Position numbers and translations under genes: made by a program. A stretch of DNA of 64,000 nt from Takakia lepidozioides (lineage: Eukaryota > Plantae > Bryophyta): the NCBI GenBank assembly GCA_030704615.1, contig CM060731.1, positions 94,178,001 through 94,242,000 on the forward strand, written 5' to 3'. Below are positions 25,201 through 64,000 of the stretch, in pieces (within the stretch, counting starts at the first letter, position 1; each line of letters starts with the position of its first letter). The notes under the pieces are model-generated. The model was not told where the DNA came from and made no database searches. It saw only the letters and a program-made list of their open reading frames with translations.

Positions 25201-28200
25201 TCTAGGTCATCCTCTCCACGTCCATTGCCAGGGCTTCGGGCAATTCCAGAGTCGGTTCACACAGGGTGCGGATGGAGACAGAACAGATGGGATGGCACAC
25301 CTCCATAGGACAGTAACCCAAGAAGATATCATATGTCCAGTATCGTAGTAACATGAGGGGTGGGCGGGGGGGACACGACACTTTTCTCTATCAGAGCAGA
25401 GGGGATGCTGCCGTCTTTTCAGAGACTGCGAGTTCAGGGCTGTATGAGTTCAGGAAAATGGTGGAATTGGCTTCCAGTTACTCACCATCTAGTGACGCTC
25501 TGTCATTTGAAGGGGCTGTCATCAAGAAGCAGGGACATGAGCAGGCTTTGCAAGAAGCCACTTTCATAGACATCTGAGATGCCTGCATCCTCATGCCTTA
25601 TTATTTGTGTGATGTTCTGCTCATTATCACTAGGGATGATACACCACGAGAGTGCAATTAACATGAGGTGGGGAGTGAATACCATTTCCTTTCTCCTGCC
25701 CAGTATAGTATGAGATCATAAGGAGATACTAAGGTTTTTCCAGAGACTGCTAGGTGTCTACCCCAACGGGTTATCCACTACCAGGACTGGAACAGGCTGA
25801 TCAGTCAGGACCTAAGGGATACATCTGTGACAGAAATGAGATCCAGATTGCCAGCTCACCCCAAAGCTCCAGTTCTACGGAGACAGTATCCTTGGGGCCT
25901 TACTAGTGTCTGCCATGTTCTCTTTGGGCATTTCAGAGTCGGTACACAAGCCTATGGATCAAGACAGGCAGATGGCAGAACATACCTGGTGAGGATTGTC
26001 CAGTATGGAACTTAACAAGAGGTGGAAAAAGACCATTTCTTTTTCTCCTGCCTGTACAATGATATCAGTGGATGATACTGCTGTCTTTTCAGACTCTACG
26101 CAACCTTTTCAGGAGGCCTTCCGTTTTTAAGACAAAAGTGCTTAGCTTAACTGCCTGAGGCCCCCGACCCGGGCTGAGTTTTCTGGGGACCTACTATGTC
26201 CACCGAAGGGTTTACTTTTTACTTCGGTTTGATTTGCCGTCTGGTTTTGGACTCTATTTTCCTCCTTGCTGCAGCTGTAGCCTGGCATGGCAGGGCCTGC
26301 AGAAATGGTATGTTAGGGTGTATACATCAAACGATAGTCGCAGAGAAACCTGTGTTGAGGAACAACCAATGTAGAAGTGTTGAGGAACTGGCTTGGGCTT
26401 CTTGGTTCTGCAAAATACTCCTGAGTGTTTTAAGTGATGGTGGTTAGCAAAGGCAGAGACAAACCTTGTACCAAGTGCATGTGTGAGATGAAGCTCTCCG
26501 CACGTGCTTTCATGATTCTCCTCTCTTCAGCCCACTTCAGTTCCTTATCAGAATCTGTCTCGTTTTCCATATTGCCACTCTTTCCCATCAACAGCTTCCA
26601 CACTCTCATGGTCTCTGTATCCAGCACTACTTTGGGTCTAGGTTTTCTCTTTCGCAGGGGGTTGAAGGGTCCGTCGTATGGGACTAATGCTCCATTCTTG
26701 CCTTCATATGGGACCATTTGAAGCCCCTGAGATGAGGCATCATTGTTATGTTCTGGTTGGGCAACTTGTTCTGTATCCTGCAGTGGGAGGTATTGCTGCA
26801 TTACTTGGGGCCAAAGAGCTATAACTCGAAGCATTTGGAGCCCCTGAGATAGGGCATTAAAGTTATTCCGCTGTTGCATGACTTGCTCTGCGTCCATTAT
26901 GTGGGGCCAATTAAATACAATCTCCTCTTTCTGTATTGCTGGGAGAAGCTCCATTACATGCGGCCACAGGGCCACAACTGGGTCCCTCTCTGTCTCTGGG
27001 AGATGCTCCAACACATGGTGCCAAAGGGCCACAGGTGACAGTGAGATTCCAGGAAATGTCAGCAACCCTCTTAGATATACAATGCGCTGCAAGTCATTCA
27101 TCGATAGAAATGGGATTGGTTGATGAACAAGAACAGAACGAGGGCAAAGTGACTGAAATAGAGTTGTGAGTTCAGTGCTGCTCCCGTTCATGGCCTCGTG
27201 GAGCCCCTCAAATCTGGCCATAGATGACATGGTTTGGACTGAACCCTGATGACTGTAATGATATGCCCCTGCGTGTGATACTGGCTGAAAAAACTGGGAG
27301 CCCCTATGCTCAGTTACGATACTTTCTGACCTGCTGTCATTCGAGTTGTCATTCCTTCCCACTGAACCAGCAATCTGGCCATTACAAAACCTGTCCTCTG
27401 ATGCTGCAAATGACTGGGCATCACAAAATCTCCTCTCTGATGCTGCCTCAATGTTGAACTGTTGTATGAGAGACCTCCTGACGGAATGTGAATCGGAGTT
27501 CGACTGTTGCACAACATCAGACGACCCTGCCATCTCTGGACTATGATTTGAATTTAGGTCATTGATTATTGGTGTCCCCTCCCATGAGTCTCCTTCAGCA
27601 TTGACAGAATCTATGATATGCCTGTCTCCTGCACCATAGGGCTCCATATTAACCCTTTCTTCTCTTCTCTTATAGGTTTCTATAGTAACCCTCTCCCTGC
27701 CCTTTGAGGCAGTTCGCCGTTTCATGAAAGACCGACCCGTCGTGACTGACTGTTCCACCCTCCGGTTGCTTGAAGCATTGATTGTGGACTCTTTCCCAGA
27801 CAACTCCCTGTCATTGTATGTCTTCAAAGAAGATGTTCTGTTTGGGGGTGACTCAACAGTCCACTGCTCCCTCAAAGACATCCCTGCCGGTGCCACGATT
27901 CCAAATGTAAATTGCTCTACAAGAGACGTTCTGACCAGCTCTGCCCCATCATTTGACAATCCTACAGAAGATCTCCCCTCCCATGCTACACCATTGCTCG
28001 AAAACTCTGTAAAAGATTGCCCATTCATTGTAGCTTCAGCAATTGAATGTCCCATACTTGACCTCCCAACCAGTGCCTCTCCAGCAGGTTGCTGTTCCAA
28101 AATGGAGCATTGTACCATTCCTGTCTCGACATTCGAATGCTTTGTGACTAGGCTCTCGTTCTTCGTTTTCTTTTGTCTTATCTTTACATTCGACTTCTCT

Positions 28201-31200
28201 GTGAGTCTGAATTTTTCACAACTGTCACATTCGCAGAAGGCCTTATCATGACCTATCTTTCTTGGCTGGTCAGTTGGAGAGTTCAAATTCTCACCCTCAA
28301 CAGGTTTTGGCTGCTCTCTTCTGTACATATTATTGACAAGAGCTGCAGCGTTGTTGACATGGACAACGGACGCAGGTATGGAGCCTACTCTGTCAACTGC
28401 CATCTCAAACCCTGTATTTCTCACATGCTTTACATGGTTCCCATGGTCAGTCACATCATCACCTGGAGTGCTTGAATCCCCTCCCTCTGCAAGACCCTTT
28501 CGTTTCTTCATATATTTCCTTTTTGCAGAATTGTCATTGAAAGCCGAAGGAATGCCTCCAAATCGTTCTCCACATGATGTCTCCACAACCCCTGAATTGC
28601 ACCCAACATCAATTCAACAGTTCTTTGCATGTTTTGAATGAAATGCTTAATTCAAAACCTACCATATAAGGCTACACATATCAATGCCTTATTTCTTGAA
28701 GAATGATCTAAGGCCAGGCTTTCTATGAGAGGCTCTCATGGACCTATGTCAGTGCATGATTAAACTGAAATGACCATCCCATCAGATCCAAATTGTGCAT
28801 CCTTCAGTTGTACTGGAACAAGTTGCCTCAAAGTCAGCTGCAATGGTATACTTACCCACTCCATCTGTGCTAGTTGGCTTTCCCATCGGTCTTCCATTTG
28901 TCTTCTTCTCTTTAGGAGCCTTTGCAGGTCGCTTGTCCTTAGCAACCTTTGGGGTGTATTTCCTTTTGACCTTGCCATTTACGACTGTTTCCAGCAAACC
29001 AGGGACCTCATTTAGATCAAATGAATGTCCTTCCTTCCTTCCATGGGAGCTCTCCAGAGCAGTCACTATTGGCACATGTGAATGACCAGATCTATCCTGA
29101 GGGAGATCCCGTTGGTTAGCTTGTGTGATTTCAGAGACTGCAGAGTCCGCAGCTCCTTGTGTTGGAACAGTAGATGAGATACTCGGAGGCAAGTAGACAT
29201 GAACTTGCGAGCTTGATTGAGGAAGTGTTGTCTCAGAAGCACGGAAACCAGCATGTCTTTTCGTTGGCAACCAAGAGCGCAAGGATTTCTCCACATGCTT
29301 TTTTTCAGGTGTGGCAGGTGTCTCCAGATTGTTTCTTGCTGATGCATACTCCAAGTATGTCTCTTGTGGGGCAGATCTGCATGGAGAGACCAGAGGGTTC
29401 CTGTTGCCAATTGCAGTAGCAGGTATTGCTGCTTGAGAAGCCCTCTGAAACTCATGCAATCTTGCCCCAAATTCAGCACTTCCATGAGGTTGACATGGTA
29501 AAAGAGTCGCCTGAGCTGGTGCCACAACAGTGGTGCAACTTGCACGGACATAAGAGGTCTGACTTGAGTTACTCATAGAGACTGTCCTCAGTTGATCTCT
29601 AGCAGTACAGGGTATGCTGGGCACTCCCAGGATGTTCAGTTGTCCATGATTCTGAAAGTTGCCACTGCCCAATGGCATAAAGGTTGACTGTGTGCTGCTG
29701 CCATCTGGCTGAGGCGGAGGGGTTGATGCAGAGGATCCAAAGCTTGATAAGGCAAACAAGGGGGAGGGGGAATTTATATCATTGAATAAGCATGCTGGAT
29801 AACTTACAGGGGATGCCAAATTTTGCCTGGCTGGTGCTGGAGCTTGCTCTTCAGTTCCAGGTCTTAAGAAATTTGCATTGGCAACTCCACCTTCACTTGA
29901 TGAGAGTGTGGGGCTGGCACTTACTGAGATTGGATTATAGATATATCTTCCATTTGAGCCACCTGCAAGGAATATGTTACTGTCCACATCACCGTAATGG
30001 CCACCTTCAGAAGCAGGATGGGTCAAGCTACTACACAAATCACCCTTGGCAACATCATCATGAGACATGTTTGCTGGGATGCAACTGCTCTCCAAATCTT
30101 TACAGACATGGCATTCACAAACTTGAAGGGAGCAGGTGCCCATGTCACAACATGAATTGCTGGCTGCGGTAAGACAAGCCTCCAAATCCCCGTGAGCATT
30201 ATCTGCACAAAACAGAGTGACAAGCATGATCTGGCAACATTCACAAAGTTTCTACACTTAAACCCAGATGTCTTAGGAATTGGCTTCAACTCTCATGACC
30301 TGGGTCCTCATTAACATCTACTGATCTAGGGCCTGCAGCAATGCTCAACTAATGGATACCGACCCAGAATTCAACTTGTGGGGACAACTGAGTCTCAGCG
30401 ACTGAAGAGATTCCTTGGAAGTGGTTTTGAGAGTTACCAGCATTCACTGCGTTTGTCTTAGCTCTGCCCACAGGGTCTGAACCTGTCTCCAAGTTACCAT
30501 GAGAGTAGCCAATGGGGACGAAACCTGTGGTCAAGTGGGCACAAGCATTCCCTGCTTGAAGCTGACCTGCATTCCCCGAGGTCATCCTCGAGGGTGGGTA
30601 TGGTTCTTCAAAAATTCTGGATGCCTTGGATGTACATAATTCAACCATAGGAAGCTCCTCTGAAGTCCCTAGAGAGCCAACAGGCCTGTTTGACTGTGCA
30701 TCTAGGCCAGTAGATTGTGGAGTGCTGACGATGATGGAAGAGTTTGAATTAGTTGAGAAGTACTGTGATAAATCTATATAGAGACTGGAAATCTCGTCTT
30801 TGTCTGCACTGATGCAAGCTAAGGGCCCAGAATTTGGTGCTACATGACGACCCCCAGTAGATTTCTGTGGCCTATTGTCTAACGAAGGGACTGGACTGGA
30901 TGTCGCAGGTGAAGTCTTCCTACCATTTGATTGTCTCACATCCTCTTGGTCAGATAGCAGATATCCCAATGCTTGGGGAAGTTGTTGGGTGAGTGAGTTT
31001 CTCTTTCTTTTCTGTGGCTTCTCTGGCGTTGGTGGGCCTATTACAGAGTCCCCTTGCAAGCCACATGCCCCCTGCTTCCTGGGCATGATGTCTGGACCAG
31101 GGGATATCCCCTGGCCCAAATTGGAAGCCGATTTCTGGAGTGTGAGAGCCTGGACCATGTTGTCCTCTAGCAGAATTTCCTCTCGCTCGCACTGAATCTT

Positions 31201-31618
31201 GTTATTCTGCATTGCAAGGATCTGCCCATTGAGCACCAGTGAGTGAACCTGCAGCAGAAAAGTGAATCTGATGTAAGCAATCTATACCATACATCTCTCT
31301 GCCCCACATTTCTCCACCAGTGAAATCAATGATCTGTGGGCACAATCACTCTGCTAGATGTTTTGTGCTGCAACCATCACATACCAGGCTTCAGGACAGG
31401 CATCAATTTTGGGCCAGCCTTTCCAGTCAGCACTTTGATGCAGGCATCAAATGCCCAAACCATTAAATGCCCTCAGAACCACCCCGAGTGAAAGAGTACA
31501 TTTTACCGTCGGATGAGGATATCAACAAATTGTCATTGAGCACACCGGAACTGACCTGAACGCTCTTCTTGTAGATCCTTTGCTGTAGTCTCCTCTCCCT
31601 CATGAGTTGATCCAGCAT
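16202..31618 (-). CDS. DME: DEMETER/ROS1-family 5-methylcytosine DNA glycosylase/lyase (DNA demethylase), ~2,380 aa, ~20 coding exons
   Basis: Exons by GT-AG and phase: 31618-31556 (tentative first; alternative ATG 31212), 31248-30360, 30202-28856, 28591-26465, 24597-24507, 24004-23035, 22643-22564, 22213-22129, 21575-21484, 21114-21046, 20817-20781, 20566-20484, 20240-19569, 19050-19014, 18875-18818, 18529-18423, 17965-17900, 17584-17470, 16687-16649, 16326-16202; total 7152 nt, in frame. Motifs: KRKYTPKV; domain A PRPKVVLDTETMRVWKLLM...HMHLVQGDRSFSRWKGSVVDSVVGAFLTQNV; HhH GLGLKSVECIRLLTLHHLAFPVDTNVGRI; 4Fe-4S CTKSKPNCNACPMRGDC; RRM-like VPCRTAMQGSFPLNGTYFQVNEVFADH...CFWRGYICVRGFD. Orthology to DME versus ROS1 is not resolved. 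Confidence 0.95.
17195..17246. repeat. Short fold-back (probable MITE remnant) in a DME intron
   Basis: Arms ACCTATGTAGTAGGTAGCG and CGCTACCTAGTAAATAGGT, 19 bp with 2 mismatches. Confidence 0.7.
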
Positions 31619-41957: not shown

Positions 41958-43664
41958 TTAAAGGCTGGAGTATGCAAAGGGTTCAAGGAGTCTCCAGGCT
42001 TGAGAAATGTTTAGGGAGCCATTCAATGACGGACAAGTATTGGATGCAGTAGGTGGATGAAATCTGTAGATGAAGTTCTCGGTTTTCATTCACATTCCCA
42101 CACTGAGACGAATATTTCCATTCATAAGTGCAAATGCAGGACTACGGAGAGAGTCCAGGCTTGAGAAATATGCAAAGGGTGTATGGAGGGTGTTACTGAT
42201 TCTAAAAATTTGCACAATCAATTAAATCAAGAGATGTGTAGATAGAAAATTCCATCCCTATATATAGTTGAAAGTGTAAATAGGATGTAGTTCATCCGGT
42301 CAAGTTGGTGCATGTGGTCAAGAGATACATTGTACAGTAATGGGGCAAACATAGGGTTTCATCCAGCACGAGCCGTTCTACCATACCTGTCTACGCTGTC
42401 CAACGATAATTCAACGTGCTGACAGGAAAAAAAAAAAAAAAAACATTTTGAATTTTATATTATATATTCTGATAACTTTCAGAACTGCACAAATTCCAAA
42501 AAGACTGCTGAACCTCTTCTTCAAAAAACATTAATTATTCTCTTCCCTGACGAATAGCATGGGCAAGTACCTTATACAAAGGTGCCACCTGGATTAGTGT
42601 GTAGAATTTCAGATCACTTTACAACCAATTACTAATTTATACAATGCGGGCCAAAATGTGAATTCCATGCATTTGTTAATGACTTCAAAAGCTTCAACTT
42701 CCCGTCACCGTCCTAGGTTGGCCAACGACAAAAACGAAAATCTTGAGTTATGAGAGACATTGGTTTATTAACTGATGTGACATGGAGGAGCATCATATTA
42801 AAATGAATGTCGGTGGCTAAACCTGGACATTGAATCTGTTGGGCTTGATGGATTTGACTGCACGCTGCCTCAAGGCACAAAGGAAGGGTGAGTTGGATGG
42901 CTGCCGTTTGAACTCATACCAGGGCCACATAGGCCAAATATGTCCGCAACGCAGCTCCCATAACGCGGGCCTTGGTGCGCAAGGTTGTCAGACTGTCCCT
43001 AGGCTGGCGCCACTGCATTTGGGCATCCGAGTTCTCCAACGCAGCCGAACGCAGCCGAACGTACGTTCCGGGAAGCGTGCACCAGACCATGGACGTCCAC
43101 ACGTCCTACGTCATTTTCACGTGTGTTGAGCCGTTGGATTACAGGCCCTCTCAATCACTCCTAGTTTGCCACCTTCTCGACGCATTGGGGGATGGCAGGC
43201 AGTGTGGCCGCCATCTTGCAACATCGCGGGGCCTGCGTTCAGCCACTGTTGCTTTCTGGCTTTATTTCGCCTAAAAAATATGGGTTGGTTCCGTTGTCAA
43301 TGACACTACCGCTCCGATTCTCACTAATAAAGCCATTGCTAAACATCGCAATAGCCGCCTAAAAAACTTGTTCCACAAGAGTGGTATGGCAGCAGGAGGA
43401 GTCCGTTGACGTGGATATAACTTATGGGAGCTGTCAAACCGTTTTGTCACCACACCGACACAATGGTGACGGCTGTAAATTCTGATGGATAAATGTGGAA
43501 TGGTACTAACTGTGGTTAGCGGATTGTGATGCGTGATGGCCGGGCCACACAGGGCAAAAACCTCGTTCAGGTGACCCTTTTGGCTTATTGCAAATGCAAG
43601 CAACTTGGAGTACCGGTGCATATCTCAAAGCCTATCAAACGAGCTTTGTGGGCTGCGACACGCC

Positions 43665-43908
43665 CAATGTTTTTCTTTTTGGCGAAAAATCGCCATATTT
43701 CGACCTGGAAACTCGGTCAGCTACTTGTACAAAGGTAGTAAAATCCGAGATTTTCGCCAAAATGCACCAGGAGATAAATTTCAGGAGCCTAATCTTGGCG
43801 ACGTGGACCAATGAGAACGTGACACCTGGAATATAGCCACTTTGCACTGGGTGGAATTCACAGGTGGCCCCGCCAGCGATTTTGGGAATATGAAAAAAAA
43901 ACACACTG
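43665..43908 (+). mobile_element. hAT-type MITE
   Basis: Termini CAATGTTTTT ... AAAACACACTG, 8-bp TSD GACACGCC (43657-43664, 43909-43916); related copies at 55271, 55620 and 57177. Confidence 0.85.
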
Positions 43909-46900
43909 GACACGCCCTTGTAAAAAAAACAGGGAAAAAACAACAAAAAAAGAGCCAGAAAGCGCGCGTTTCCTGGCGGAGTGTCACCATAAGGCACCAA
44001 AGGAACCACCCCCTGGCGCCTGGATCCCATGGCACCCGCCATCAACGCGGCCGGCGCTGTTGGCGTGGCAGCCGTGGGGGATCTCGCCAGGTGCTGCGCC
44101 CTGGGCCGTCCGTTTGCCAAGCGTTTTAGGGCTGTAGGGTGGTGGCCATCGCACTTGCGATATAAAGCTAAATAAACCTTTTATGGTAGCCACTTTGATG
44201 CAATATAAGGTAGAAAGACACCGCAATATGAGCAGGTCCTAAAAATGGACCCTATTTTTGGGGGTGTAAAGTGGTCCCGCCTGCCCTTAAATGGCGACCT
44301 TACTGCCAACGGGCCGATTTAGGTTCCTTCGTGGTCATTGTGGGCCCCATGGTGCTTTGTTAGATGAACAAAAACGTACCAGCGTATTTGCCAAATGGAG
44401 GCCTTTTATAGGATACCTTTTGCTCTTGTGGCCGATCTGTTGGGTGAGTTAGTGGCCATTTTCAAGTGCACATCTCTCGTGCATATCAGGTCACATGTAG
44501 GCTTCATATTAGATAATATTTCAGTGAGTTATGGTACCCCGCTCAGGCATAGCTTTTTTGTGCCTGCCACTTTTGAATATATATCAATTAGCCACTTCGT
44601 CCAAAATTCATGAAACCAATTCAACCACAAGCTGTTTGTTCAATTGCTCATCCAGTCATAAAATTTTTCCCCTTCCTGCACCAATTGTATGGGCATATCT
44701 GCTTAAGCGCTTACATTTGGGTGTAACTACCTTAAGGGCCCTTCGGGCTAGGTTTATCTGCCCTGCTTTGAACACGTGTCGCCCTTGAAATGTCTTCTTG
44801 GTCATCTTTGGGCGCCATATTGCGACAGTATGGTGCATAGTTGTAGCCACATATGACCCATGGAAACAGCTGGTTCGCCACCTATGCACTGTACACCACC
44901 AGTTTGTAGCCACATGGCCGCTGTACATGAAATGGAAAAAATGGGCTGGATGGAACATCTCGTAAATGTTTGGCATTAACTATGAATGAATGATGATACT
45001 TTATTGTTGTGCATGGGAAGCCCTAGTGTCGCATGGCCACATAATAACCGCACACAAAAGTCATCTTTTATTCTTGGAAAATAGTTGGCGAATCCTGAGG
45101 CAATGCAATGCGTCTACATATACGATGGAATCTTACGCAAAAAATAGATGGTCTGTTTTACATGTTGGTGGGTTTGTGAATCTGCCCGACAACATATGGC
45201 TAGGTGGCAAACTTCGGCGTGCTGGATGATAATGGGAGTTAGGGCGGACCCGGTGGAGACTGATAACTTGGAGGTCCGCCAGAGTGGGCTCCAAAGTAGC
45301 AACGCGCTAAACGTGGCGGCGTTCAAAAAGCCTTGGCTCGCCTGCCTCCACGGATTTCCCCACTCCCGTGCAAAAGCCGTGGCTTGTCGCGTCACGCTCG
45401 CCCTTCGCCAATAATGCAGCTGCCCGCCTGCCCGCTTCCGTGCACCGCTGCCCGCTGTCAACATGTAATATTGCCAGTAATCTGCGCAATCAATTATCGG
45501 CCAGATTGCGTGATGGTAAAAGTGTGGCAGCAATAAAAGTGTACTCTATACGCATAGAGAACATTAAAGTACACGTTCCCTTCACAATGGATGGATCATG
45601 GATGCAAGCGAGAAGAATCCCGATGCATGAGTGGACGAAGAATCGTGCGCCACTCCCCAATATTCCTGCGCCCCCCCCTCTCCCCGGTTTTTTTTCACAC
45701 GATGATTCTGGAGTCATGAATAGGCCATGTAAAGAGGCCCTAATATTACATTGTGGACAGCCAATTCCCATTCAGACATGTGTCTGTCTTCACTCGGTTC
45801 TTCCTAACTTGTTTTGCTTTTCCACAGTTGCGCTCAAGACCCCAAGTTTTGTGTGATGCTCGCCAAAGGGCCTGCGACTACAGGGTCCTAGACCAAATTG
45901 GGAAATAAGCCAATAAGTGAGCGGCACCTATTGAGTAGGATACCACCCTGTTTAAAATACAAGAAAGTTGGGTACCAACTCATTAGTTGTTTCTAACATT
46001 TGTGGGTACCCAATTCCACATGTTGAGAGCATCCAATCGTTCCTTCCACTTGTATCAAGCATGTAAATATGTCCTTTCCAGCTTTTTTTGGTCATTTCGA
46101 TTCTTCCAATATCATAGTCTAATGTTAGTTTCAAGTCTTGGAATGCTGATGGAATTTCTCATCAACCGAGAGTTCAAATTATACTCTCCTAGCTTTACTG
46201 AGGCAATTACTCATGGACTTTGATACCAACAACACTACCAACAACACATTGATATAAACAAGCCTCATATAAAATAAATAAGTACCCAACAACATCAGTT
46301 GTGGGAACTTTTGAAGGTAAAAAAAGGAGAGAGGATTGGAGCGACCAATAGGAATGTAGAAAAGGGTGCAGCTGAGCGAAGCAGGAGGCCGAGGGGACGT
46401 GTGTCCAGCCACATCCAGGCGCCCATTGTGGGAATGTGCACACCTGGCATGAACCAGCGAAGGCTAGAGACGGCTGGCCCCGCCGCTCACAGAGGGTATA
46501 TAAAGGAGGGTCCGCTCCAACTTACTACCTACTACTGACTAATCTACACCCAAGGCCTCCACTAAAAAGCAAAAATGTGGAACAGGTACCATAAGAAGAT
46601 CATACGCTAGCTCAAATGGCAATGAGCTCTCTTGCTTTTTCGCAAAGCATAAGGGGGAGGTGAGACTAATAAGGGCATGACTTACAACATACCAATGGGT
46701 CGCTGTATAAGGTTCTTGACCACATTTTCTCCGTTGACTTCAACATGATGCATAGTCTCTCTTCTACATAAGAGAACTAATAACAAAGGGACCATGGTTA
46801 ATGTCACTCGCTTCTTTCCTTTGGTTCTCTTTCCTTCTGATCCAATCAAGAATCTAGTTGGACCCTAAAGGAGTTTGATTAGCATACTGGGCTACAGTTC

Positions 46901-49429: not shown

Positions 49430-51807
49430 CATGTCTATGTAGTGTCACGACAGTAACCTGCCATTGTGCTTGGTCTCTGATGACAGAGTTGGGGCATTGG
49501 CAAATTCGTGATGGCTGTAAGTGCAGGTCGCATTGGCTGACCTGAATTTCCATTGACTCCCTTGTCTCCTCTCCTTCTTTCCAACACTCTCCTTCTTGCT
49601 GCTCTTTGAGTAGGACTTGACATTCCAAGGTTTACACCATGATAGATGTTTGGATTAGCAGTCACCCCACTTCTGATGGCTTAGTGGAAAGCATTGCCCA
49701 TAGCTCTGACATTATGTGTTTGCCAATAAGCATCAAACGCCGCTTTTTGGCGTTTCTCTATGGCTTTCTCACTTGCTTTCTCGGCTGCAGAACGTGTCTC
49801 TTTGCTTCAGTCGTGCCTTTTCTTCTGTCTCTCGCCGTTTCTTCTCTCTTTCCTTTTCAACAGCCTCTCTCATAAGGGTTTTTTGTTGATTGTTGTGTAC
49901 TCCGTAGAGGTCATGACAATGGAATTGGCATAGTCAACTAATGACTATTTTCCTTTTGTAGGCTTGGCTGGAAATCGAGGCAATGCAAAGAAGGACTGGC
50001 TTGACTGGTAAGTATCTTGTGTGCACTGCACGTCTATTTCTGAACTCTGTCCATTATCAGAAACCTGATTTGTGGCTCATTGCAAATTGACAGCAATGTT
50101 AGATCCCACAAAAAAATGTTGCATTTGACTTTCTTCCATGTAAGTAACATCATTGGTTGGCTGGGATTGTTCACTTGCTATGTCAATGAGTGAAGTGCCC
50201 TCACCGAGAGGTAGAGAAGGCCGCACACTTGTGTTTGTGTCCTCGTTGCTTCTCGATGCTTGATATTCATTCGTATCAAGTGGACTGTTTTCGATCATGG
50301 ATAATAGTGCAGCTGCTCCAGCAGTAGTATTTGCTTCTACCTCGACCTCTGCTTCATCATTCTCGCTCTCTGACCCTGTTTCAGGTTCATCTCTTTCAGC
50401 ATCAAATTGTTCAGAAGGTCCAACTTTACTCTCCATTGCGTGAGGATTGAAAGGCCAAATTCCAGTGGTGCGAAAACCAGCCCGAATATTTTGAGGTAAT
50501 AGCCTCCTTAACAGCTTGGTCAACCTATGATGCCAATGCATTTTTGTCGGGTTCCACAAAGTTTCTTTGCAGCATTTCAAAGTCACAAATGCTTCGAAAT
50601 TTAGTTTTGAAGGGCTTAAAGCAAGCCCACATCGAGGGGCTGTAGAGCATGTGAGGTATGGGCTGGAAGTGTCACCATGTCCAGCCAATCTCCATAGCAT
50701 ACTGAATTGCTTCAATCGTGACGTGGGTACCATGTCCATCCAATATTAGCAAGTATCGATTTTCTGTCGAAATCCCACCTGGAACTTTCTTTTTGAAAAA
50801 AAACCAGCCACTGTTAAACAACTTGGCCGTCATCCATGCCTTTTCTTGCATTGCCATGCAAGCCCCTGTCTCACAGTCTTGAATGTAATCCTCCATGATT
50901 CGTTTGCCTCTGAAAATGAAGTAGTTAGGGATCCTCCCTCCTTCAGCATTTACACATGCATTTACAGTCAACCATTCTCTAGACTTGGGTATGGTGCTGT
51001 AGACATAATGCGAACTTTTCTTAGCAATGACCCTTGCTCCAGAAGTTCGCCCAGCTTGACACCCTGTTTCATCGCTATTCCAAATGTGTATGGAAGGATA
51101 GTGATGCTTCGCATACAACATTTTCAAATTGTTGTAAAATGTTTCACAATGTTTGGAAGTAAGTGCTTTAGCCCTGCCACTTCCAGCCCTTCAGCCATTC
51201 TGATCGCAAGTTGTGGATATCTTCTTCTAAACCACTTCAACCATGAGTGACCTGGAATGCCGTTTGTGAAAAGGGTGGCTCTGATTTGAATTAACTCACC
51301 CACTTTCAGCTTCAATTGGTGGACTGTAACTGAATGACCAATATCTTGCATGCGTAAAATCCAGTCTACCACTTGGTCTTCCTCTTCCACTGAGAGAACA
51401 CCCTTAGCACCTACTTTTCTTTGCTTTGTTTTCCCATTGAGGTGATCTAGCAAGGAAGTATAAGGAATGTTCCAATGCTGACCTGCTTATCTGATGCTCA
51501 TGGTACCTCTTTCCACGACATCCATTGCTTCTTCCAGCGCATCATCACTCCACAACCCTATTTTTGTCTTGTCTTTCCCTCGTCTTCTCTCGCTTTCTTG
51601 CTGACCCGGGGTTGTGGATGGTGGAGTTGGTGTTGCACAAAGGGGTTCAATAGGGGCTGGAGTTACCGCTGGTTTTGACCGGTTTGTTTTTTTCCCTCTT
51701 TTGTTGGTTTGAGCGGAAGCATTACCAACAGTGGAGTCTGATGCATGACCACCTTTGACAAGCTTTTTCTTCTTGGCCACATTTAGATCTTCTACTAACC
51801 ATTGCAA
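49430..51807 (-). pseudogene. pogo/Tc5-like (CENP-B-related) DDE_1 transposase, frameshifted
   Basis: HTH_psq-like WSDDALEEAMDVVERGTMSIR; CENP-B HTH LSVEEEDQVVDWI...PGHSWLKWFRRRYPQL; DDE_1 IWNSDETG...WLTVNACVNAEG...AWMT...LLILDGHGTH; NIRAGFRTTGIWPFNP; then acidic, coiled-coil and Cys-rich tail. Element termini not identified. Confidence 0.88.
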
Positions 51808-54902: not shown

Positions 54903-55270
54903 TTAAGACTAAAGACCCTAAGTCTCTTTATATGTTTAAATACTAATTGTTATTTTGAGGGTGGGACGTCTGCAGTCAGTCAGAATTGCTCTGGGCAGAA
55001 GCAGCAGCGAGTTCATGGCAATCGCTGGGTTGCAAGCATGTTGTGCTTTGGGTACTTACATTTCGTTTTCTTTGCCAACTTTCACTGTTGCTTGGTTCAT
55101 TTTATATGATATGTGTGGGATGCAGACAATCTTGTCCAGGGGCCTCTCGTTTTTTTTAATAATTTGGATCATCATCAGCACCTCTGGAGGGCCATTAACA
55201 GTGTGAAAGGAAACAGCTCTTTGTGCAGGCGTAGCAGCAGGTTTGACTGTTAAATAGCTTCCAGGGCCCC

Positions 55271-55537
55271 CATTGTTTTTTTTTCCCTGGCGACAAATCG
55301 CCAGAATTTGACCTGGAAAAAGGGTCAGCTACTTGTACAAAGGCATTATGGGGGTTAAAAATCGAAAAACTCACCAAAAAGCGGCCATAGTTGTATTATA
55401 TGAGCCTGATTTTGCCTACGTGGACCTGTAAATCGTGCCACCTGTTATATAACGACTTTTCTAACCCTGCCACCTCGTTATTCTCACCACATGGTTGCTG
55501 GGTAGAATTTTGGAAAAATGAAAAAACAAAAACGCTG
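55271..55537 (+). mobile_element. hAT-type MITE, same family as 43665-43908
   Basis: Shares TGGCGA.AAATCGCCA, GACCTGGAAA, GGTCAGCTACTTGTACAAAGG and ACGTGGACC blocks; no clear TSD. Confidence 0.75.
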
Positions 55538-55657
55538 TTCCAGGGCAACAGGCCACGGCCTCCAGTCTTGGTTATTTTTTCCAAGACTCCTATTAATACG
55601 AATTAAAGGGCCTCCGTCCCAGTGTTTTTTAATCTGGCAAAAAATCGCCAGATTTCG

Positions 55658-56049
55658 TACTAGAGAACGGGCCGTGTTTGGCCGATTCTGCCCTGTAAGC
55701 GGCTTTTGGGCGAGCCCTATGGCCGCGCACAGGGCAGAGTCGGCCAATGCGGCCCCATTCAATAGCGTTAAAAGCAGGTGTGGCGGATTCTCGCCGCTAC
55801 GTGGCGCAATATGATTGAGGTTCGATTATCCCATATCGATTGCCCAGGTTCAGAGCCCCAGAGAGGATATTAAGGGGGCGAGCCTCAGGGGAAGGTGGGG
55901 GGTTGATGGCTGATGACATGGGCCTCGGTGGTAGGTGTGCAGTCCTCTGTGCGTAATCGGCCATCCCTGCCGATTCTGCCCTGGGTGGCCGATTTGGCCT
56001 AAGAATTAGGCCGAAAAAGTGGCAGAATCCGCCACACCTGCTTTTAACG
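55658..56049. mobile_element. ~390-bp non-autonomous element with asymmetric inverted repeats and a terminal hairpin (Helentron/Helitron-like), copy 1
   Basis: Interrupts the MITE sequence GATTTCG|ACCTGG without a TSD; 26-bp IR CGTTAAAAGCAGGTGTGGCGGATTCT is internal at one side and terminal at the other; long hairpin next to ACTAG. Confidence 0.6.
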
Positions 56050-56274
56050 ACCTGGAAAATGGGTCAGCTACTTTTACTAAGGAATTACAAGAGTAAAAAT
56101 TAAAAAATCGCCAGAAAGTGCCACTGGTCAAATATCAGGAGCCAGATTTGTCCTACGTGGACCTATTATATTATGACACCTGTAATATAGCCACTTTTCT
56201 AACTAGGTCACCTCGTTAGTCTCGCCATATGGGCACTGGGTAGAATCTACATGTCGTTCTGCCTGCGATTTAGG

Positions 56275-56665
56275 TACTAGAGAAGGGGCCGTGTTTGGCC
56301 GATTCTGCCCTGTAAGCGGCCTTTGTGCGAGCCCTATGGCCGCGCACAGGGCAGAGTCAGCCGACACGGCCCGTTAACTGGCGTTAAAAGCAGGTGTGGC
56401 GGATTCTCGCCGCTACGCGGCGCAATATGATTGAGGTTCGATTATCCCATATCGATTGCCCAGATTCAGAGCCCCGGAGAGGATATAAACGGGCGAGCCT
56501 CAGGGGAAGGCGGGTGGGTTGATGGCTGATGACATGGGCCTCTGTGGTAGGTCTGCCGTCCTCTGTGCGTAATCGGCCATCCCTGCCCATTCTGCTCTGG
56601 GTGGTGGATTCGGCCTGAGAATTAGGCCGAAAAAGTGGCAGAATCCGCCACACCTGCTTTTAACG
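56275..56665. mobile_element. Second copy of the ~390-bp Helentron-like element
   Basis: Direct repeat of 55658-56049 with scattered substitutions and the same termini. Confidence 0.6.
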
Positions 56666-57176
56666 AAATGTGAAAAACAAAACACTGCTCCGTCCCCTTT
56701 CTTTAAGGGGAAAAAAAAAAGAGTAAGGCATTGTGTAGAGTAAGGATCTATTGTCTTGAATAGAGAAAGTTCCAAAATAAATGAGGTGCGACATTTGCAG
56801 GGCTACTTCCTCCCCTTTGAAGACTCCAATAGGCATAGGGACAAAAATAGATATGTGCCAGAGAGAGTGTTTTGTTCCAAAAGAACCGGACAAGCCTAAT
56901 AAAGAAGCGTATGTTTCTTGGAAGACGCGCAAAGATTGCACGCCCTCCCAGCCCCCACTCCTTCGCACACAAGCTCATCACACCCCTACACATTTGTGAG
57001 CAGTCGTCCCTAGCCAGGCAAGCAAGGATGCTGTCTCTCTACTCTCCTCATAAGGTAGTAATAACACCTAAACGTGTGCGTGACCTTGAATGGACCCAAG
57101 CCTGCTTTTTGCACCTGTCCCATCAGGTTTGACAGGCAAAAAAAGGCAAAAACAAAATAGCCTGTCAAAAGAAACA

Positions 57177-57462
57177 CTGTGTTTTTTTTTCTCATATTTC
57201 GAAAATCGCTGGTGGGGCCACCTGTGAATCCCACCCAGTGCCCATGTGGCGAGAATATCGAGGTGACAAAGTTAGAAAAGTGGCTATACTCCAGGTGTCA
57301 CGTTCTCATTGGTCCATGTTGCCAAGATTAGGCTCCTGAAATTTATCTCCTGGTGCTTTTTGGCGAAAATCTCAGATTCTAACTCCAATATTCCTTTGTA
57401 CAAATAGCTGACCGAGTTTCCAGGTCGAAATCTGGCGATTTTTTGCCAAAAAGAAAAACACT
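57177..57462 (-). mobile_element. hAT-type MITE, inverted copy of the 43665-43908 family
   Basis: Reverse complement matches 43665-43908 over most of its length. Confidence 0.82.
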
Positions 57463-57619
57463 GGCAAAAAGGCAAAAATTACTGATATTTATTAGCAATT
57501 TTATTAGTAAGTCCACCTAGGAGAGGCTAAAAAAAGTACAAATTGTTAGTAGTTACTGCTAATCTTACTAGTAAGTCCACCTAGCGGAGCCTTACAGAGG
57601 CACTGCCAGCTGGACCCTT

Positions 57620-58208
57620 TGTCGTGCACCTAAGCATCGTGCCACAACATACATCGCTGTCCACCACACAATCTAAGCACACAATCCTAGAAAGCTATAC
57701 CACAATGATAAGAGATGAAAAATGAGAGAAGTAGAAGACAATGAAAGCTCTCAAAGCATGAAGCAATCACATGAAGAACAAGCCCTAGTCCTTCCAAGTG
57801 AAATCCACTCTATCACATAAACTAAGTCAAGCCAAGGGCACCTTTGCTAAAGGAATCCACCCAACAAAGCCCTCAACACACTCCCTCTCAATACCTAGAG
57901 CTATGGAGGTGAGAGAAGCTCATGGAAGCTCAACTACAAGAAGATGAGCCTCCTCAACACTCACAAGGGGAAAACCTATCTCCATGTCTCAAGTGAGGCT
58001 CGACACCTCACTTGGCATGTGAGACCAAATGAAGTCCCAACACACAAAATATAAATATAAATATCTAAAATGTTTTAGTTAACTAGAAGTAGGTAATTAG
58101 ATAACCATGACTAAAACCATGATAGCTGTCGTGCATCTAAGCATCGTGCCACAACATACATCGATGTCCACCACACAATCTAAGCACACAATCCTAGAAA
58201 GCTATACC
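57620..58208. repeat. ~80-bp direct repeat (57620-57700 and 58127-58208); probable LTR-derived sequence at the 3' end of the Gypsy element
   Basis: TGTCGTGCA.CTAAGCATCGTGCCACAACATACATCG...CCTAGAAAGCTATACC twice; both copies start with TG and lie just downstream of pol. Confidence 0.6.
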
Positions 58209-58466
58209 CCAATCGCCCCCTAGCTGGTGGTTAGGTCCCTCTAACTCCAGATAGCTACAAGATGTAATAGCCACAGCCGTACTAAGTCCTCTATCACTGT
58301 CCCTATTGTACTCAACTCTATAGACCAAGAGGCCGGGTACAAGAGCAACCCCATCGTTAGTTGTCGTCTTGCAATATGTGAACTTGAGTCAGGATCTCAT
58401 ATGTTGGTCTCCTAGTAGCTTGGCCTTGCATTTCTTGTTAGCCTTCCATGGTTGTATCCACTCCCA

Positions 58467-58612
58467 CTATCCAATGCAATGCGGACATAACCAATCCCCA
58501 TCAGGAACCATCTCAAGAGGTGGAGTCAAGCATCCCATCCCAACCTCTAGAGCATTGATCACACACCAGCATGGTGGCTGCCCTCTAGCAGACCCACGCA
58601 ACATGCACCTCA
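58467..58612 (-). other. PHD finger at the integrase C-terminus (degenerate)
   Basis: CMLRG...MLVCDQCSRGW/MGCLTPPLEMVPDGDWLCPHC*; second Cys replaced by Arg and a frameshift at the expected His. Confidence 0.85.
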
Positions 58613-61600
58613 AACTTGCAGGTACCACTGCCAGGTTTGGGTCAACCCTCCATCAACATTTGGAAGGTGACATGGCGCGCAATTACGCACATGGTCCTTC
58701 CAAATCATGCCATCCCGACCCTCCAAGATCAGGACTCCTAAGGGCAACACCTCTCGAACCCTCAAAATAGTACGTCCTGCAGTCACATCCAAGGTCGTAG
58801 GAGTAGTCTGCTGCAGATAAACATAGTCACCAGGGTTGAATCTCCGAACCCCAGGACGATAGCCCCCACCACGTATGGTAGCATACCTCAACGTATCATG
58901 ATGTTGTGCAATGGCAAGGTTCTCGAAAGCCATGGGCATGACTTTCTTGAACAACTCTGCACGCTGCATCAATGCACGTGCCCACACGTCCGGATCGTCA
59001 AGGTTAAGAACTGTAGCAGCTTCTCTGCGAATGGATGTAGGCAAATCCGGCTATCGGCCAAAGAGAAGAAAGTATGGTGAGAAGGGAGGCAAGTGATGCT
59101 TGCTTGCTGAACCTGTAGCCCATGGTTAACCAGGGTAACTGAAGGTCTCAATCTCCTAGGTGTCCCTTCTACAAGCCATACTTGCGCAAACCCATCTTTA
59201 CTGTCTGAACAACTATCTCTGCCAAGCCATCGGCCTCAGGATGATCCCGAGAAGTGGTGCGGTGGTCTATCAAGGCCTTGTCACACAAAGCCTGAAACTC
59301 CCCCAAGAACTCTCTCCCTTGGTCCGTGAGTACCTCAGCTGGAGCACCGGATCGGCTAAGCACACAATCCAAGAATGCATACGCAGCTCCCTCACTAGCC
59401 TTATCAGGCAATGGAACCATTCAATCCACTTGGAGAAGTGCTCTACCATCATCAACACGTAGTTGTTGTGGCGCATGGTCAGTGGCAACAGCCCTGCGAA
59501 GTCAAGACTCCACTTGTAGCCCAATCCCATGATCGGAAGAGGGTGCAATTGTGGAGTAGGGGCGTTGAATGAAGCACGCACCCTGTCAAACACCATGCAC
59601 CTAGCCACAAATTGTTGCACCTTTGTGTGCATACCACGCCACCAATACTGCCCCTGCAGTAGACTATGAGTGCGTCGCACCCCAAAATGCCCCAACTCAT
59701 GGGCATGCCGCACTAACCGTGCCCGCTGTGTTGGGTGAGGCACAATCCTCACTCAACCATCCTCCCACACTCGGAGCAGGTGTGTCCCCTCCCACTTGAA
59801 CCTCTTGGCTCGTTGTAGGATCCGATCCCTCTCCTTGGTAGTCACAGTGGCTGCAGTGTCTCCAGTGCGGAGGTAGTCCAACACAACTGAATCCTCATGT
59901 ATATCTTTGGCGGCACCTTGCTCATTGCTGGCCTCAGGGTCCTCAGACACTTGATCTACAGTCATCCATGTTGCAGGTCCAACCTGGTCTTCCGCTGCCA
60001 AGATACACAGAAATGCAGATGCATGCCATCCGGGCACCATCTCCTCGTCCGTCTCACCATGCTACCGAGCTCCAGTGTCATCCTGTTGGCTCGTGCATGG
60101 ATTGCGACTCAACCCATCTGCATTGCGATTGACCAAACCCGGTCGATGCACCACCTGAAAGTCATACTCTTGAAGGATGAGTGCCCACCGTGCAAGCTTC
60201 CCCGTAAGCTTGTCTGACTCCATGACAAGGGTGAAGAGATTGCCGTATAGATAGCACCTGAAGTGTGCCACGGCCCACACTGCAACTAAGCATTCTCCCT
60301 CATATGAGCTATACTTAGACTCTGCAACGTTGTTCGAGCGGCTAGCATAAGCCACTACGAACTCTCTCTCCTCATCATCCACCTGTGTGAGCACCGCTCC
60401 AAGCCCTAGCATGCTCCAATCTGTATGCAGCTGAAAAGGACGCCCCTGATAGGTCGTCTCAAGATGGGCGCCGAGGTCAACCTCGCCTTGAGCTCTTGAA
60501 AAGCTTGTTCTTGCTCATCTTCCCACTGCCACTCCTAGTCCACCTTGGTCAGCTTGGTTAGAGCCATTGCAATGGCACTAAATCCCTTAACAAACCGTCT
60601 ATAATAGTTTGCTAACCCCATGAAAGCTCGAACTTGGCTCACATCCATGGGGCGTGGAACCTGTGCAATGGACTCTACCTTATTCTGCTGTACCCCCAAT
60701 CCTCCAGGATATATCATGTGACCCAGATACTCAATCTGGTTGTGGAAAAACTTGCACTTTCCCGGATGTAACTTCAATCCGTGCGCCCTCAAGCGCTCAA
60801 ATACCCCCTGAAGGTGTCTCTCATGCTCTTCCACCGTAGCACTAAAGATGATGATGTCATCTATGCAGCACCGAGCAAACTCCACCCCTGCTAGAATCCT
60901 GTCCATGACTCTCTGAAACTCTGCCGGAGCGTTCTTAAGCCCAAATGGTAAGAACCGCCACTGGTATAGGTAATCCTTCCCGTGCTCATTGATCCCCCAG
61001 AATGCCGTCTTTTGCTTATCCGCCTCCTTGATCGGCAACTGGTGATATCCGGATCGTAAATCCAACGTGCTAAAGACCTTGGCATGCCCAATGGCATCAA
61101 AGATCTCCTCTGGTGTTGGCATGGCATACCTATCGGACTTGGTCTGACGATTTACAGGCCGGTAATCACCGCACATACGTCTCTCCGTCTAATTGCCAAA
61201 GACATCCTTCTTGGCTGGCATCACTGTGGTTGAAGCATACTCTCCCCCAGATAGCTCCACCAAACCAGCCTCCCAAAGGTCCTGAGTTCTCATCTGTGTC
61301 ACTGTATCTATAGGGTCTCCGAAAGATTGGCGTGTCAGTAGCCAATTCAATGCGAATCTCTTGACCCTTCAATGCTCCTCAGTCCTTCAAACTGAAGGCA
61401 AAGCAGTTCCTGTAAGCCCTCAAGAACCGTCGTATACGTTGTATCTCTCCTCCGGTGACTATAGGTCCAACATCAGGCTCCCAGTTGTCCTCCGTGACTG
61501 CAACCTTGAGTCCAGCAGGCTTAGAGGTAGAAGACGCATCCCGTGGTTGCTATGCTGCAACCTGTTGAGCAGTGACCACTACCTCCTCAGTCAGTGACAA

Positions 61601-61864
61601 TGTCTCATCCTGCCCCATCATCCCATCCTTGAGGATCTCCTCAATCCGAGAAAAATCCCCAACCTGATCCATCACCGCCGCCTTGGCTGCCAACTCCTTC
61701 TGAACCTCTAGCACCTCCCACGTGTGCCATGGATGCGGCCTGCACCTCATGGTCCTCACCTGCTCGCCCCCACTCGCTGCCTGTACCGTCTCGGTAGGCA
61801 GGGAGACCATGAAGGGAAGTGTACTCCGTACTCTGCGCTGCTCAGCCATAGCCAAGCTGATAAT

Positions 61865-62800
61865 CTAGGTCAAGCAATTGAGATCCATTGCTTGCCCCAA
61901 CACCTGACGACGTGATGCCTCAGAAAGAGATGGCACCCGTCGTGGTACCTGTGGTAAAACCCATCGCCCGCTCGCGCTCGTCAGCATTGGGCTCCACTAA
62001 TTGTTGCAACTGGCTATCCCACAAGAGGCCAGGTCCACCATCCCGAAAAGCATGGGATCTTGGGAAGTTGAGCAGTGTAGATGATGTTGCTCGTGGTTGA
62101 CCCACCCTGTTGACCACTGCCAAAGGCGTCATCGTGTCTCACACGTTGAGACTGCCTCCCTGTATCAAAATGTTATCCACTGCGAGGTGTGCTGGCCGCT
62201 GCACCCCATCAAATGCACGCTTGAGCAGTGCGGGTGGCATCAAGTTAGTCCACCATAGCCGTGGACGATGAGCCCATGACCCCACTGCAGTTGCATCCAG
62301 TAACACTGCTGACCCAAGCCACGACCGGACTTGATGCACACTGGCTATCACCCTGGCCCGAGAATCACCCATCAGTGGCACATTCTCCAAGATGTATGCT
62401 GGAGATACAGCTTGATGAAGCTGCAAGTGGCGCAAAATCCGCACCATCTCCCAAAACAGACCCGTCCTCGAGTCTCGCAATCCATTGCCATGCCCGGCTG
62501 ATGAATGCCCTTGGCAGGGCCAACCTGCCCACTACCAGATCAATGGAACCAACCCGCTCCAATCCTGTGCCCCAGCAACGAAATGTCTGCTAGCAAGGCT
62601 TGTTGGTATCCACGAACTGCAGACATTGGCAACAAATCAGGGTACTGCTGTACCAACTAAGCAACATGGCGCAGTGAGACGCGTCGTGCAGTCTCATCCC
62701 TCTCCACATACAGGTAACGTCAAACTCGTACACCTGCCTGCAGTACTGCAGCCAATCCAGTGCTGATCCCGCCAAACAAGTCCAGAAGGCATATGCCTTC
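61865..62800 (-). pseudogene. DNMT3-like cytosine-5 DNA methyltransferase domain within Gypsy pol
   Basis: Motif I LLDLFGGISTG; IV IDLVV/AGWPCQGHS; LFWEMVRIL; VI YILENVP; VIII AHRPRLWWTNL; IX ERERAMGF; X RRQVLGQAMDL, all in canonical order. Confidence 0.9.
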
Positions 62801-64000
62801 ATCCGAGCACTGCCACACAAGAGGTGTGGTGTCCAATGGCGACAACTGAGGTGGTTCTGGTGCAATCACCGCACTCTCCTCTTCTCCTGACGGCACGAAG
62901 GCCTCTACCCAAGCTTGTTGTACCCGTCCATCAGCAGCCTGCTGCAAATCCTTGCTCGTACCCCATAATGGAGTGTGAGCAACCATGGCAGGCAACTCCG
63001 CCGTACCATGCATGTCATCCTGCTCTGCTGGAGGGTGCACATCCTGCATGGGCATTGCCTTCCAGCAATTCTCCAGGCCAACTAACTGCAGCTGTAAAGG
63101 CGGCTAGTGTTGACAGCTTGCCCCGCTGGGCAGCCACAATACCCCCAATGAATGTCACAGGGAGTTGTGCACGACGGATCCCCTGACTGCCATCCAGGCC
63201 TGTAGGATGCTGACTCCTCCCAAAAGTCCAGGGTGAAGCCCATGGGATATAACACTGCCCCACCAACAAGGACATCATAAGAGACCGCGTCTGTCACAAT
63301 GGCCTTGGCTCGCATCACTGAGCCATCTACAGGATGATCTGGTTGTAGTCCAATGGCCAACTCACGCCGTGTCATGCCCCGAGCCTGCTCTGATCCTCCC
63401 AGAGATGTCTGTATCTGGAAAGGACAAGGCTCCATATCTGCCTCCATGAGGCCCAAACCTACAATAGCAGCTCTGCCCAACATCAGTGGCTGAGCTCCTG
63501 AGTCCAACAAGACCCGCAGTGGCCAGTACTTCTTGCCTGTCGGTCCACTCAAAGTGAAAATGCCTCCCTGGTTGTCTAACAAGACAACTCCAGGTGTCAC
63601 CATGGCACGCTCAAAGGCTGGCCTAGCTGACAGCTCCGTCAACCTGGCAGCTGCAGCTTGACATGGCGCAGCCGTGGCAGTCTTGACCCTCAAATCCGAG
63701 TATCCCTCTGCCACTACACCTTCCAATAACTCCGCAGAAGATGAAGTGACCTCCCCACTTTCGCAGAGTGTTGCTGCTAGTCTAAACATTGCAGCTGGTC
63801 TTACCCCCGGCGTCACAATCATGGTTGCCAAGAACAGTGGGGCTTGACACACAGAGGTGGCTGCCCCCAATAACACACCGGCTGCACTAGCCTTGGTAGC
63901 AGGTGTCAGTGCTGCACGTGTAGCTCTCCCCAATGGCATAGTAACCTTCGCCTCGGTAACAGTCGGGCGAGAACTAGGTGCCATGGATGGCGTCGACACT

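Follow-up and report, generated by a model that had tools for sequence, protein, structure and literature searches.

A DNMT3-like methyltransferase in a high-copy bryophyte Ty3/Gypsy family, followed by a conserved in-frame stop

Background

It is not settled why retrotransposons retain a silencing enzyme. In the window analyzed here (the whole stretch of 64,000 nucleotides), the motifs of a C5 cytosine methyltransferase lie between the protease and the reverse transcriptase (RT) of a Ty3/Gypsy element, and the host is a land plant. Such elements were described as absent from land plants such as tracheophytes in a 2019 opinion (PMC6338049), and DNMT-carrying Gypsy elements are cited as streptophyte only in PMC12344493, as far as the accessible parts of these texts go. 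The locus raises the questions of whether the methyltransferase is an inherited part of the element, how it would be expressed and on what it would act.

What the window contains is probably the 3' portion of a dead member of a high-copy bryophyte Ty3/Gypsy family that carries a DNMT3-like methyltransferase, a judgement made jointly with the steps of readthrough, self-priming, circle formation and cDNA marking proposed below. The kind is already known from Klebsormidium; what is new is a conserved readthrough-type stop after the methyltransferase, together with the structure of the element ends.

Organization of the element

The following features were assigned, in the direction of transcription:

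63085..63999 (-): last part of the Gag region, and aspartic protease with LLDSGA at 63510-63493; match to Asp_protease_2 below cutoff (E=0.0095); protease region 58% identical to that of Marchantia protein P0012
61841..62791 (-): DNMT3-like C5 cytosine methyltransferase domain, motifs I-X, interrupted by stops and frame changes
start 62788 (-): motif I, LLDLFGGISTG
62525-62508 (-): motif IV, GWPCQG
62390-62376 (-): motif VI, LENVP
62300-62283 (-): LDATAV
62270-62241 (-): motif VIII, HRPRLWWTNL
61979-61956 (-): motif IX, ERERAMGF
61897-61883 (-): motif X, GQAMD
61553..61840 (-): C-terminal tail of ORF1, of low conservation; motif X, tail and pre-RT region share one frame
61544..61552 (-): in-frame TAG, then CAA CCA; conserved ORF1 stop in a CAR-YYA readthrough-type context (consensus as given in the accessible part of PMC2194720)
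60538..61188 (-): reverse transcriptase; RVT_1 E=2e-31
60065..60514 (-): RNase H; RT_RNaseH E=2e-24
58613..59752 (-): integrase (zinc-binding domain, core and C-terminal part), frameshifted; Integrase_H2C2 E=7e-15; rve E=7e-6, below cutoff
58470..58652 (-): C-terminal PHD finger; PHD E=0.003, below cutoff; Cys/His pattern plain in relatives
58214..58223 (-): polypurine tract directly before repeat B1; 89% identity with relative L045 across 54 nt of this region
58127..58213 (-): repeat B1, 87 nt, ending in CACGACA
58125..58126 (-): GC spacer of 2 nt between B1 and A2, a putative internal integrase site; CA-GC-TG in relatives, CA-GC-TA here
57707..58124 (-): putative repeat A2, placed by comparison with the complete relatives L034, L045 and L058; its 5' partner would be outside the window
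57620..57706 (-): repeat B2, the 3' end of the element (CACGACA), 97% identical to B1; step in contig depth near 57500

The 5' end of the element lies beyond the window. By Pfam, RT, RNase H and the integrase zinc domain score above cutoff, and the protease, rve and PHD matches are weak. The element is placed within Ty3/Gypsy by its domain order (protease-RT-RNase H-integrase), the DDE type of its integrase, its TG...CA ends and the shortness of the target duplication, although the two complete, identical LTRs of that class are not found at its ends, the order in L034, L045 and L058 being A-coding-B-GC-A-B.

The first-pass annotation had described the methyltransferase as part of the pol polyprotein. 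It does lie on the same strand and in the same frame, between protease and RT, but a conserved in-frame stop splits the two: the methyltransferase ends ORF1 (Gag-protease-DNMT), and RT, RNase H, integrase and PHD finger follow the stop. The split terminal repeats with their internal integrase end, the self-primer predicted in relatives and the C-terminal PHD finger had been overlooked there.

The methyltransferase domain

Motifs I, IV, VI, VIII, IX and X follow one another in canonical order from 62788 to 61883 on the minus strand, with the protease on one side and RT on the other, and the domain is colinear with intronless relatives, in agreement with the earlier description of a non-permuted, intronless enzyme at this place. 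An uninterrupted piece of 130 residues (62142-62531) matched PF00145, the family proposed for checking (E=1e-10, 41.9 bits versus a cutoff of 22); the other three of the four methyltransferase-region pieces scanned gave no match to this family. With the motifs PC, ENV and RxR in order and the Pfam score above cutoff, the domain belongs to the C5 cytosine methyltransferases. Identity with DRM was rejected, because the motif order is not circularly permuted.

The copy is dead, and frameshifted as originally noted: in-frame stops are found at 62722-62720, 62659-62657 and 61867-61865, and the frame changes four times, near 62528, at 62170/62130 (a compensating pair) and at 61937. Sibling contigs from this organism do not have the break at 62528. 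In the dead copy, every catalytic position that was checked is intact; these positions are nearly invariant among 133 homologues (Cys in 132, the motif VI Glu in 132, both motif VIII Arg in 131).

A relative with an intact domain, L030, was used for comparison with known structures. Its best PDB sequence match is human DNMT3A (E=4e-11), followed by weaker matches to HaeIII (1e-4), to entry 4onj (7e-4), which we take to be a DRM, and to HhaI (8e-4). The predicted fold also best matches DNMT3A/B (E=4e-10, TM 0.54), and every top fold match listed is a DNMT3; the mean pLDDT of the model is 61. Compared with the catalytic domain of human DNMT3A/3B, the catalytic motifs are kept, whereas identity in the structural alignment is only about 17%, PWWP and ADD domains are lacking, and the target-recognition region is poorly modelled (pLDDT <50), so that sequence specificity is not readable from the model. 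By these comparisons the window domain is best assigned to the DNMT3 family, closer to DNMT3 than to DRM or bacterial enzymes, and the initial label of DNMT3-like stands.

Copies and conservation

Contigs of the same organism pile up over positions 57500-64000, with a summed depth, which is not a copy number, of 4e5-1.2e6 on the coding region and 57 on the unique flank. The DNMT and RT are covered to a similar depth, and a 5009-bp contig from a second organism carries DNMT through PHD in one piece. A protein search, answering the call for relatives in other bryophytes, returned 22 proteins, eight named Marchantia polymorpha and three Calypogeia fissa. From 206 pattern matches in a metagenome scan, 62 loci were obtained; RT follows the DNMT in 39 of these, and the remainder end or break off sooner. 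Having been picked by a DNMT query, these loci cannot reveal siblings devoid of the domain. None of 46 pattern matches in IMG/VR is a relative.

Selection was evaluated from dN/dS ratios, as had been suggested. For the DNMT they are 0.07-0.12 between the window and four relatives and 0.15-0.20 between two other families (between-family dN 0.21-0.30, dS 1.5-3.5; pairs with L055 are saturated), indicating purifying selection. RT gives about 0.06 and the protease 0.15-0.30, and two dead copies of one family give 0.9, as neutral decay predicts. Within this high-copy family, which is under purifying selection, the DNMT domain is fixed. The proposal that the methyltransferase is an inherited Gypsy part in a land plant agrees with the Marchantia and Calypogeia relatives, the depth and these ratios.

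The same contig bears a spliced gene for a DEMETER/ROS1-type DNA demethylase (window 16200-31300, minus strand), in which about 18 exons were matched, those at the 5' end being very large. Its named matches come from Sphagnum (summed tblastn score 1121), Ceratodon (1057) and the lycophyte Diphasiastrum (759). By this gene, the host is a seed-free land plant, closest to mosses in a comparison without liverwort or hornwort proteins.

It is highly improbable that a piece of a host DNMT3 was captured just once, that the domain sits in a nested insertion or that the contig is an algal contaminant: loci chosen by DNMT cannot show domain-less siblings, but the similar depth of DNMT and RT, the contig of a second organism, the RT behind the DNMT in 39 of 62 loci, the separation of the same two groups by DNMT and RT trees (see below) and the moss-like DEMETER gene all speak against it. 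Nothing that the first-pass annotation had named as fatal to its own reading, i.e. no PF00145 match, domain-less siblings or a nested insertion, or an algal or contaminant contig, came to light.

Relatives in the green lineage

With E values up to 1e-30, a profile search yielded 483 clusters. Two layouts occur among the best 149 new proteins: protease-DNMT-RT, which is that of the window, and RT-RNase H-DNMT-integrase-PHD; RT precedes a full DNMT in 44 of these 149. The second layout is found in P0219, a protein of the chlorophyte Monoraphidium; the search behind it covered proteins longer than 2238 residues only and is silent on vascular plants.

In a tree of 133 DNMT domains (midpoint root), none of them a host DNMT3 or DRM, the window falls in a clade of 19 leaves with Marchantia, Calypogeia and metagenome families (support 1.0). 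This is nested in a clade of 40 leaves (0.95) with Klebsormidium nitens GAQ93235 (P0109) and Closterium proteins, which bears out the relationship to charophyte retrotransposon DNMTs that had been put forward. The RT tree splits the same two layouts with a support of 0.999. The window family is thus placed, by its sequence, as a land-plant branch of the known KnitGypsy-Dnmt3 kind. On these trees, descent from streptophyte algae would be the simplest reading.

KnitGypsy-Dnmt3 of K. nitens, according to the accessible text of PMC5890265, has Gypsy domains, an intronless, non-permuted DNMT3-like domain, DIRS-like repeats and purifying selection, all in common with the window family. The combination given in the legend to its Fig. 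4c, a Gypsy element that has DIRS-like repeats and a DNMT3-like domain free of introns, is found here as well, and the clade of 40 under the midpoint root argues for common descent; GAQ93235 is presumably one of the copies described there. The window family differs in having a land plant as host and a high copy number. In KnitGypsy-Dnmt3 the DNMT is in the ORF of RT, whereas here the frame is the same, with a conserved stop in between. Readthrough, self-priming and an internal integrase site find no mention in the main text of PMC5890265, as far as accessible.

Our literature search found no description of the family in land plants; supplementary figures of PMC5890265 and PMC12344493, subscription papers and Repbase were outside its scope. 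The accessible text of the preprint 10.64898/2026.05.21.726589 likewise cites the kind as streptophyte only and makes no mention of bryophytes, moss, Marchantia or readthrough, and bryophyte elements are not mentioned in the accessible parts of PMC6453930, PMC10952607, PMC9033089 and the preprint 10.1101/2021.11.30.470311. With the family present in Marchantia, the question of why the enzyme is kept can be put in a genetic model. A practical consequence is that a number of unnamed Marchantia gene models with PF00145 represent ORF1 of a transposon and do not belong in counts of host DNA methyltransferases.

P0056, P0073, P0105, P0219 and others form a large and diverse group with the DNMT between RNase H and integrase, of which Monoraphidium is the one named member; no report of a chlorophyte DNMT3-Gypsy of this layout was found in the literature examined. 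A second Gypsy element, at positions 1-1900 of L007, has an RT nested among the DNMT-bearing ones, the contig beginning inside RT.

Terminal repeats

Complete relatives (L034, L045, L058) have the repeat order A-coding-B-A-B, with A of about 340 nt and B of about 115 nt, and the window keeps the B-GC-A-B end only. The arrangement agrees with that given for KnitGypsy-Dnmt3 in the legend to Fig. 4c of PMC5890265, the part of that figure accessible. The elements end in TGTCATG...CACGACA, and a 4-bp target duplication was found in all six with both ends identified; they are therefore inserted by a DDE integrase. Membership in the DIRS/Ngaro/PAT class was rejected on the same grounds, an rve-type integrase and 4-bp duplications being set against a tyrosine recombinase without duplication.

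At the internal B/A junction the end motifs stand head to tail, separated in 8/8 cases by a spacer of 2 nt (GC in 4, AT in 3, AC in 1), and B1 begins directly after the purine tract. The A|B junction is flush in five of seven relatives, with extra bases in two: in L042, which is internally rearranged, they begin with 9 bases of the primer site, and in L034 they are a filler ending in the bases that precede B1. Ligated circle junctions would be expected to look like this. The sequence that follows the 5' A repeat lacks an initial TGG and is complementary to A positions 164-181, about 26 nt below a TATA-like box; transcription is predicted to begin about 160 nt into A. The match is perfect over 10-17 nt in 9 of 16 5' ends (7 of them at positions 164-181), with controls reaching at most 9, and the other 7 have no primer complement above background. 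Both self-primer and 5' end were seen in one relative family only, which is not that of the window.

These features suggest the following route. The RNA would prime its own reverse transcription, the bases after the 5' repeat pairing with a stretch of that repeat, and the polypurine tract would prime the second strand, to give a linear cDNA with LTRs of the form B-GC-A. Its ends may then be joined into a two-LTR circle, which the integrase would open at CA-GC-TG inside the first LTR, removing GC. Opening at the first internal site would account for the integrated order A-coding-B-GC-A-B. We hold the chances of integration by way of a circle to be even. The model also predicts a mirror product, A-B-GC-A-coding-B, and its absence from all 18 5' ends (three pairs are duplicates) speaks against it.

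In the self-primed elements Tf1, Tj1 and Tcn1 (PMC4600332, PMC6317226, accessible parts) the primer site is likewise complementary to a stretch of the 5' repeat, without the TGG start of tRNA priming; those have ordinary paired LTRs, unlike the split repeats, PHD finger and methyltransferase of the window family. Foamy-virus integrase, in what is accessible of PMC1180852, similarly cuts a palindromic head-to-tail site in a two-LTR circle. There the site is the ligated end junction, whereas here it would be a templated site within the LTR, the ligated junction being left inside the element. Integration from a circle, as suggested by the end structure, would depart from the route usual for LTR elements.

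Split repeats may also be completed as in the end-completion model of Ngaro and PAT elements, the transcript spanning A to B2 and the B-GC-A junction templating both ends of a linear cDNA, with no circle. This would account for A-coding-B-A-B as the only form (0/18 5' ends with an upstream B), and the repeats of Klebsormidium are called DIRS-like by de Mendoza et al. in the accessible text of PMC5890265. It leaves unexplained, though, why B1 adjoins the polypurine tract and A1 the primer site, as well as the extra A|B bases, including the primer-site letters in L042, and we regard it as unlikely. As a proof of integration from one-LTR circles, the A-coding-B forms (L024, L040) and B-only ends (L009/L025, L010, L031) were rejected; L024 would be due to recombination or assembly collapse, its flanks being the same as those of L051/L057, which keep B-A-B. 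The literature search gave no description of split repeats in Gypsy for the bryophyte family, Repbase and most subscription papers being outside its scope.

The stop before the reverse transcriptase

After the METHYLTRANSFERASE, the frame of motif X in the window reaches TAG CAA CCA at 61552-61544 and then runs on in frame into the pre-RT region. TAG or TAA, and never a sense codon, stands at this site in the window and in all 43 loci reaching the region, in frame in 42 of them (L054 is shifted by a later break). The 46 loci and the window represent 40 distinct copies, of which 31 have TAG and 9 TAA, followed by CAACCC in 33, CAACCA in 3, TAACCC in 2, CAACTC in 1 and CAACTA in 1. Background decay puts stops at 1.1% per DNMT column on average, with a maximum of 23%. 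The exact CAR-YYA is present in the window, L030, L055 and L059/L060 (4/40 distinct copies); 33/40 are one base off (CAA-CCC), which is the form of the commonest family. Tail length varies among four families (100, 114, 116 and 148 codons) and their silent sites are near saturation, yet all have TAG-CAA-C(C/T), and the frame is kept across the stop in all three with the pre-RT region in view (L055 ends too early).

Protein models of Marchantia and Calypogeia end about 70-100 residues past motif X, and the three from Marchantia that extend to pre-RT, RT or RNase H sequence are without the stretch of the stop. A point against the stop is P0019, the nearest sibling of the window copy, which terminates sooner within the tail, where the frame differs between the two. 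Klebsormidium-like Gag-protease-DNMT proteins from three clusters (P0109, P0112, P0162, P0236, P0237) end 12-13 residues past the aligned domain, hinting at an ORF boundary in these as well. A single open frame is found in several relatives that fall outside the bryophyte clade (P0207-P0211, P0051, P0197, and P0130 and P0206 of Closterium), so the stop is not needed everywhere.

CAR-YYA after a stop is the readthrough signal of tobacco mosaic virus, and downstream structure is not required for it (PMC2194720, accessible part); no stimulatory hairpin was found after the stop in the elements (z +0.7 to -1.4), a point against readthrough, as is the one-base departure of the commonest family. In the copies that fit exactly, the in-frame stop is followed, as in the viral UAG-CAR-YYA, by CAA-CCA or CAA-CTA. 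The conserved stop is, in our view, quite likely a signal of this type, which ribosomes would pass now and then. Stop-separated frames are also known from MuLV, Tca2 and SIRE1, where the stop follows gag or pol; in contrast with these and with the virus, the stop of the window family follows a captured chromatin enzyme, and protease and methyltransferase would be in the abundant product. The literature search gave no description of CARYYA in retrotransposons for the bryophyte family (Repbase and most subscription papers outside its scope).

The stop could instead be the true end of ORF1, with RT-integrase made by re-initiation or from a spliced RNA in which the TAG closes an intron; even then the methyltransferase would be produced at Gag level. 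TAG does suit a YAG acceptor, and the commonest family, one base off CAR-YYA, has a run of T just upstream and an ATG two codons downstream. The other three families, however, have neither a pyrimidine run before the stop nor an ATG after it (CGG, GTG, AGG), and the codon after the stop is never CAG. The frame maintained across the stop, L059/L060, where Pro is changed to Leu yet CAR-YYA is kept, and L055, with CAA on both sides of the stop, also argue against splicing or re-initiation, which we consider rather improbable.

With readthrough, the methyltransferase would be made at the level of Gag, in large excess over RT and integrase, and many copies would therefore be packed into each particle. 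Such a readthrough stop predicts that the enzyme is needed at the structural-protein level, narrowing its possible functions.

Possible role of the enzyme

Two DNMT3 domains borne by DIRS elements of Symbiodinium methylate CG de novo in yeast, and the one Klebsormidium Gypsy-borne domain tried gave an inconclusive negative, according to the accessible text of PMC5890265; a demonstration of activity for any Gypsy-borne DNMT3 was not found in the literature examined. In the proposed scheme the packaged enzyme would methylate CG sites of the new cDNA, so that the copy would enter the genome already marked like host DNA. This is the weakest step. Action on cDNA in the particle, to which we give slightly less than even chances, is favoured because the enzyme is fused to Gag before a leaky stop and because, in the other layout, it stands among enzymes that act on cDNA.

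The methyltransferase might rather work in the nucleus or on RNA, methylating resident copies or target chromatin and so limiting the activity of the element itself or of competitors. Expression at Gag level yields far more enzyme than one cDNA needs, self-limitation is among the options in the accessible part of PMC5890265, and the PHD reader is on the integrase, apart from the enzyme. A Gag fusion would, on the other hand, co-assemble with the particle, the chlorophyte-type relatives place the DNMT between RNase H and integrase, among cDNA-acting enzymes, and by Pfam the domain is without a targeting domain of its own. We regard action in the nucleus or on RNA as unlikely.

CpG observed/expected ratios are 0.50 in the window, 0.28 in L030 and 0.19-0.37 in host exons. 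Depletion in the element is no stronger than in exons, and as a mark specific to the element it was rejected, for it does not set the element apart from them.

At its broadest, and we would offer this as speculation with little probability, a green-lineage Gypsy group, carried over from algae to bryophytes, would replicate by an undescribed route, from self-primed cDNA through a two-LTR circle to integration at CA-GC-TG inside an LTR, and the methyltransferase, loaded by readthrough, would mark the cDNA and may shield the second, identical integrase site. If true, such shielding would account for the absence of the other possible product.

Other sequences in the window

On the minus strand, a long array of degenerate, frameshifted repeats is found at 8450-11460, which look like PLS-type PPR motifs, presumably; the one ORF scanned gave no Pfam match. 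A frameshifted DNA transposase of pogo/Tc5 type lies at 50077-51486 (matches to HTH_Tnp_Tc5 and DDE_1). On the plus strand, three consecutive long ORFs at 1899-5622 (501, 300 and 480 residues, the last with a weak SWIM zinc finger, E=0.004) are possibly a little-known DNA transposon, and a short stretch at 694-901, adjoining a gap of 500 N, reads, by its motif, like the end of a Gypsy RNase H. At 43660-43910 and 55270-57470 lies a dispersed, MITE-like repeat that has several inverted arms and contains a tandem duplication of 616 bp, just outside the 3' end of the retrotransposon.
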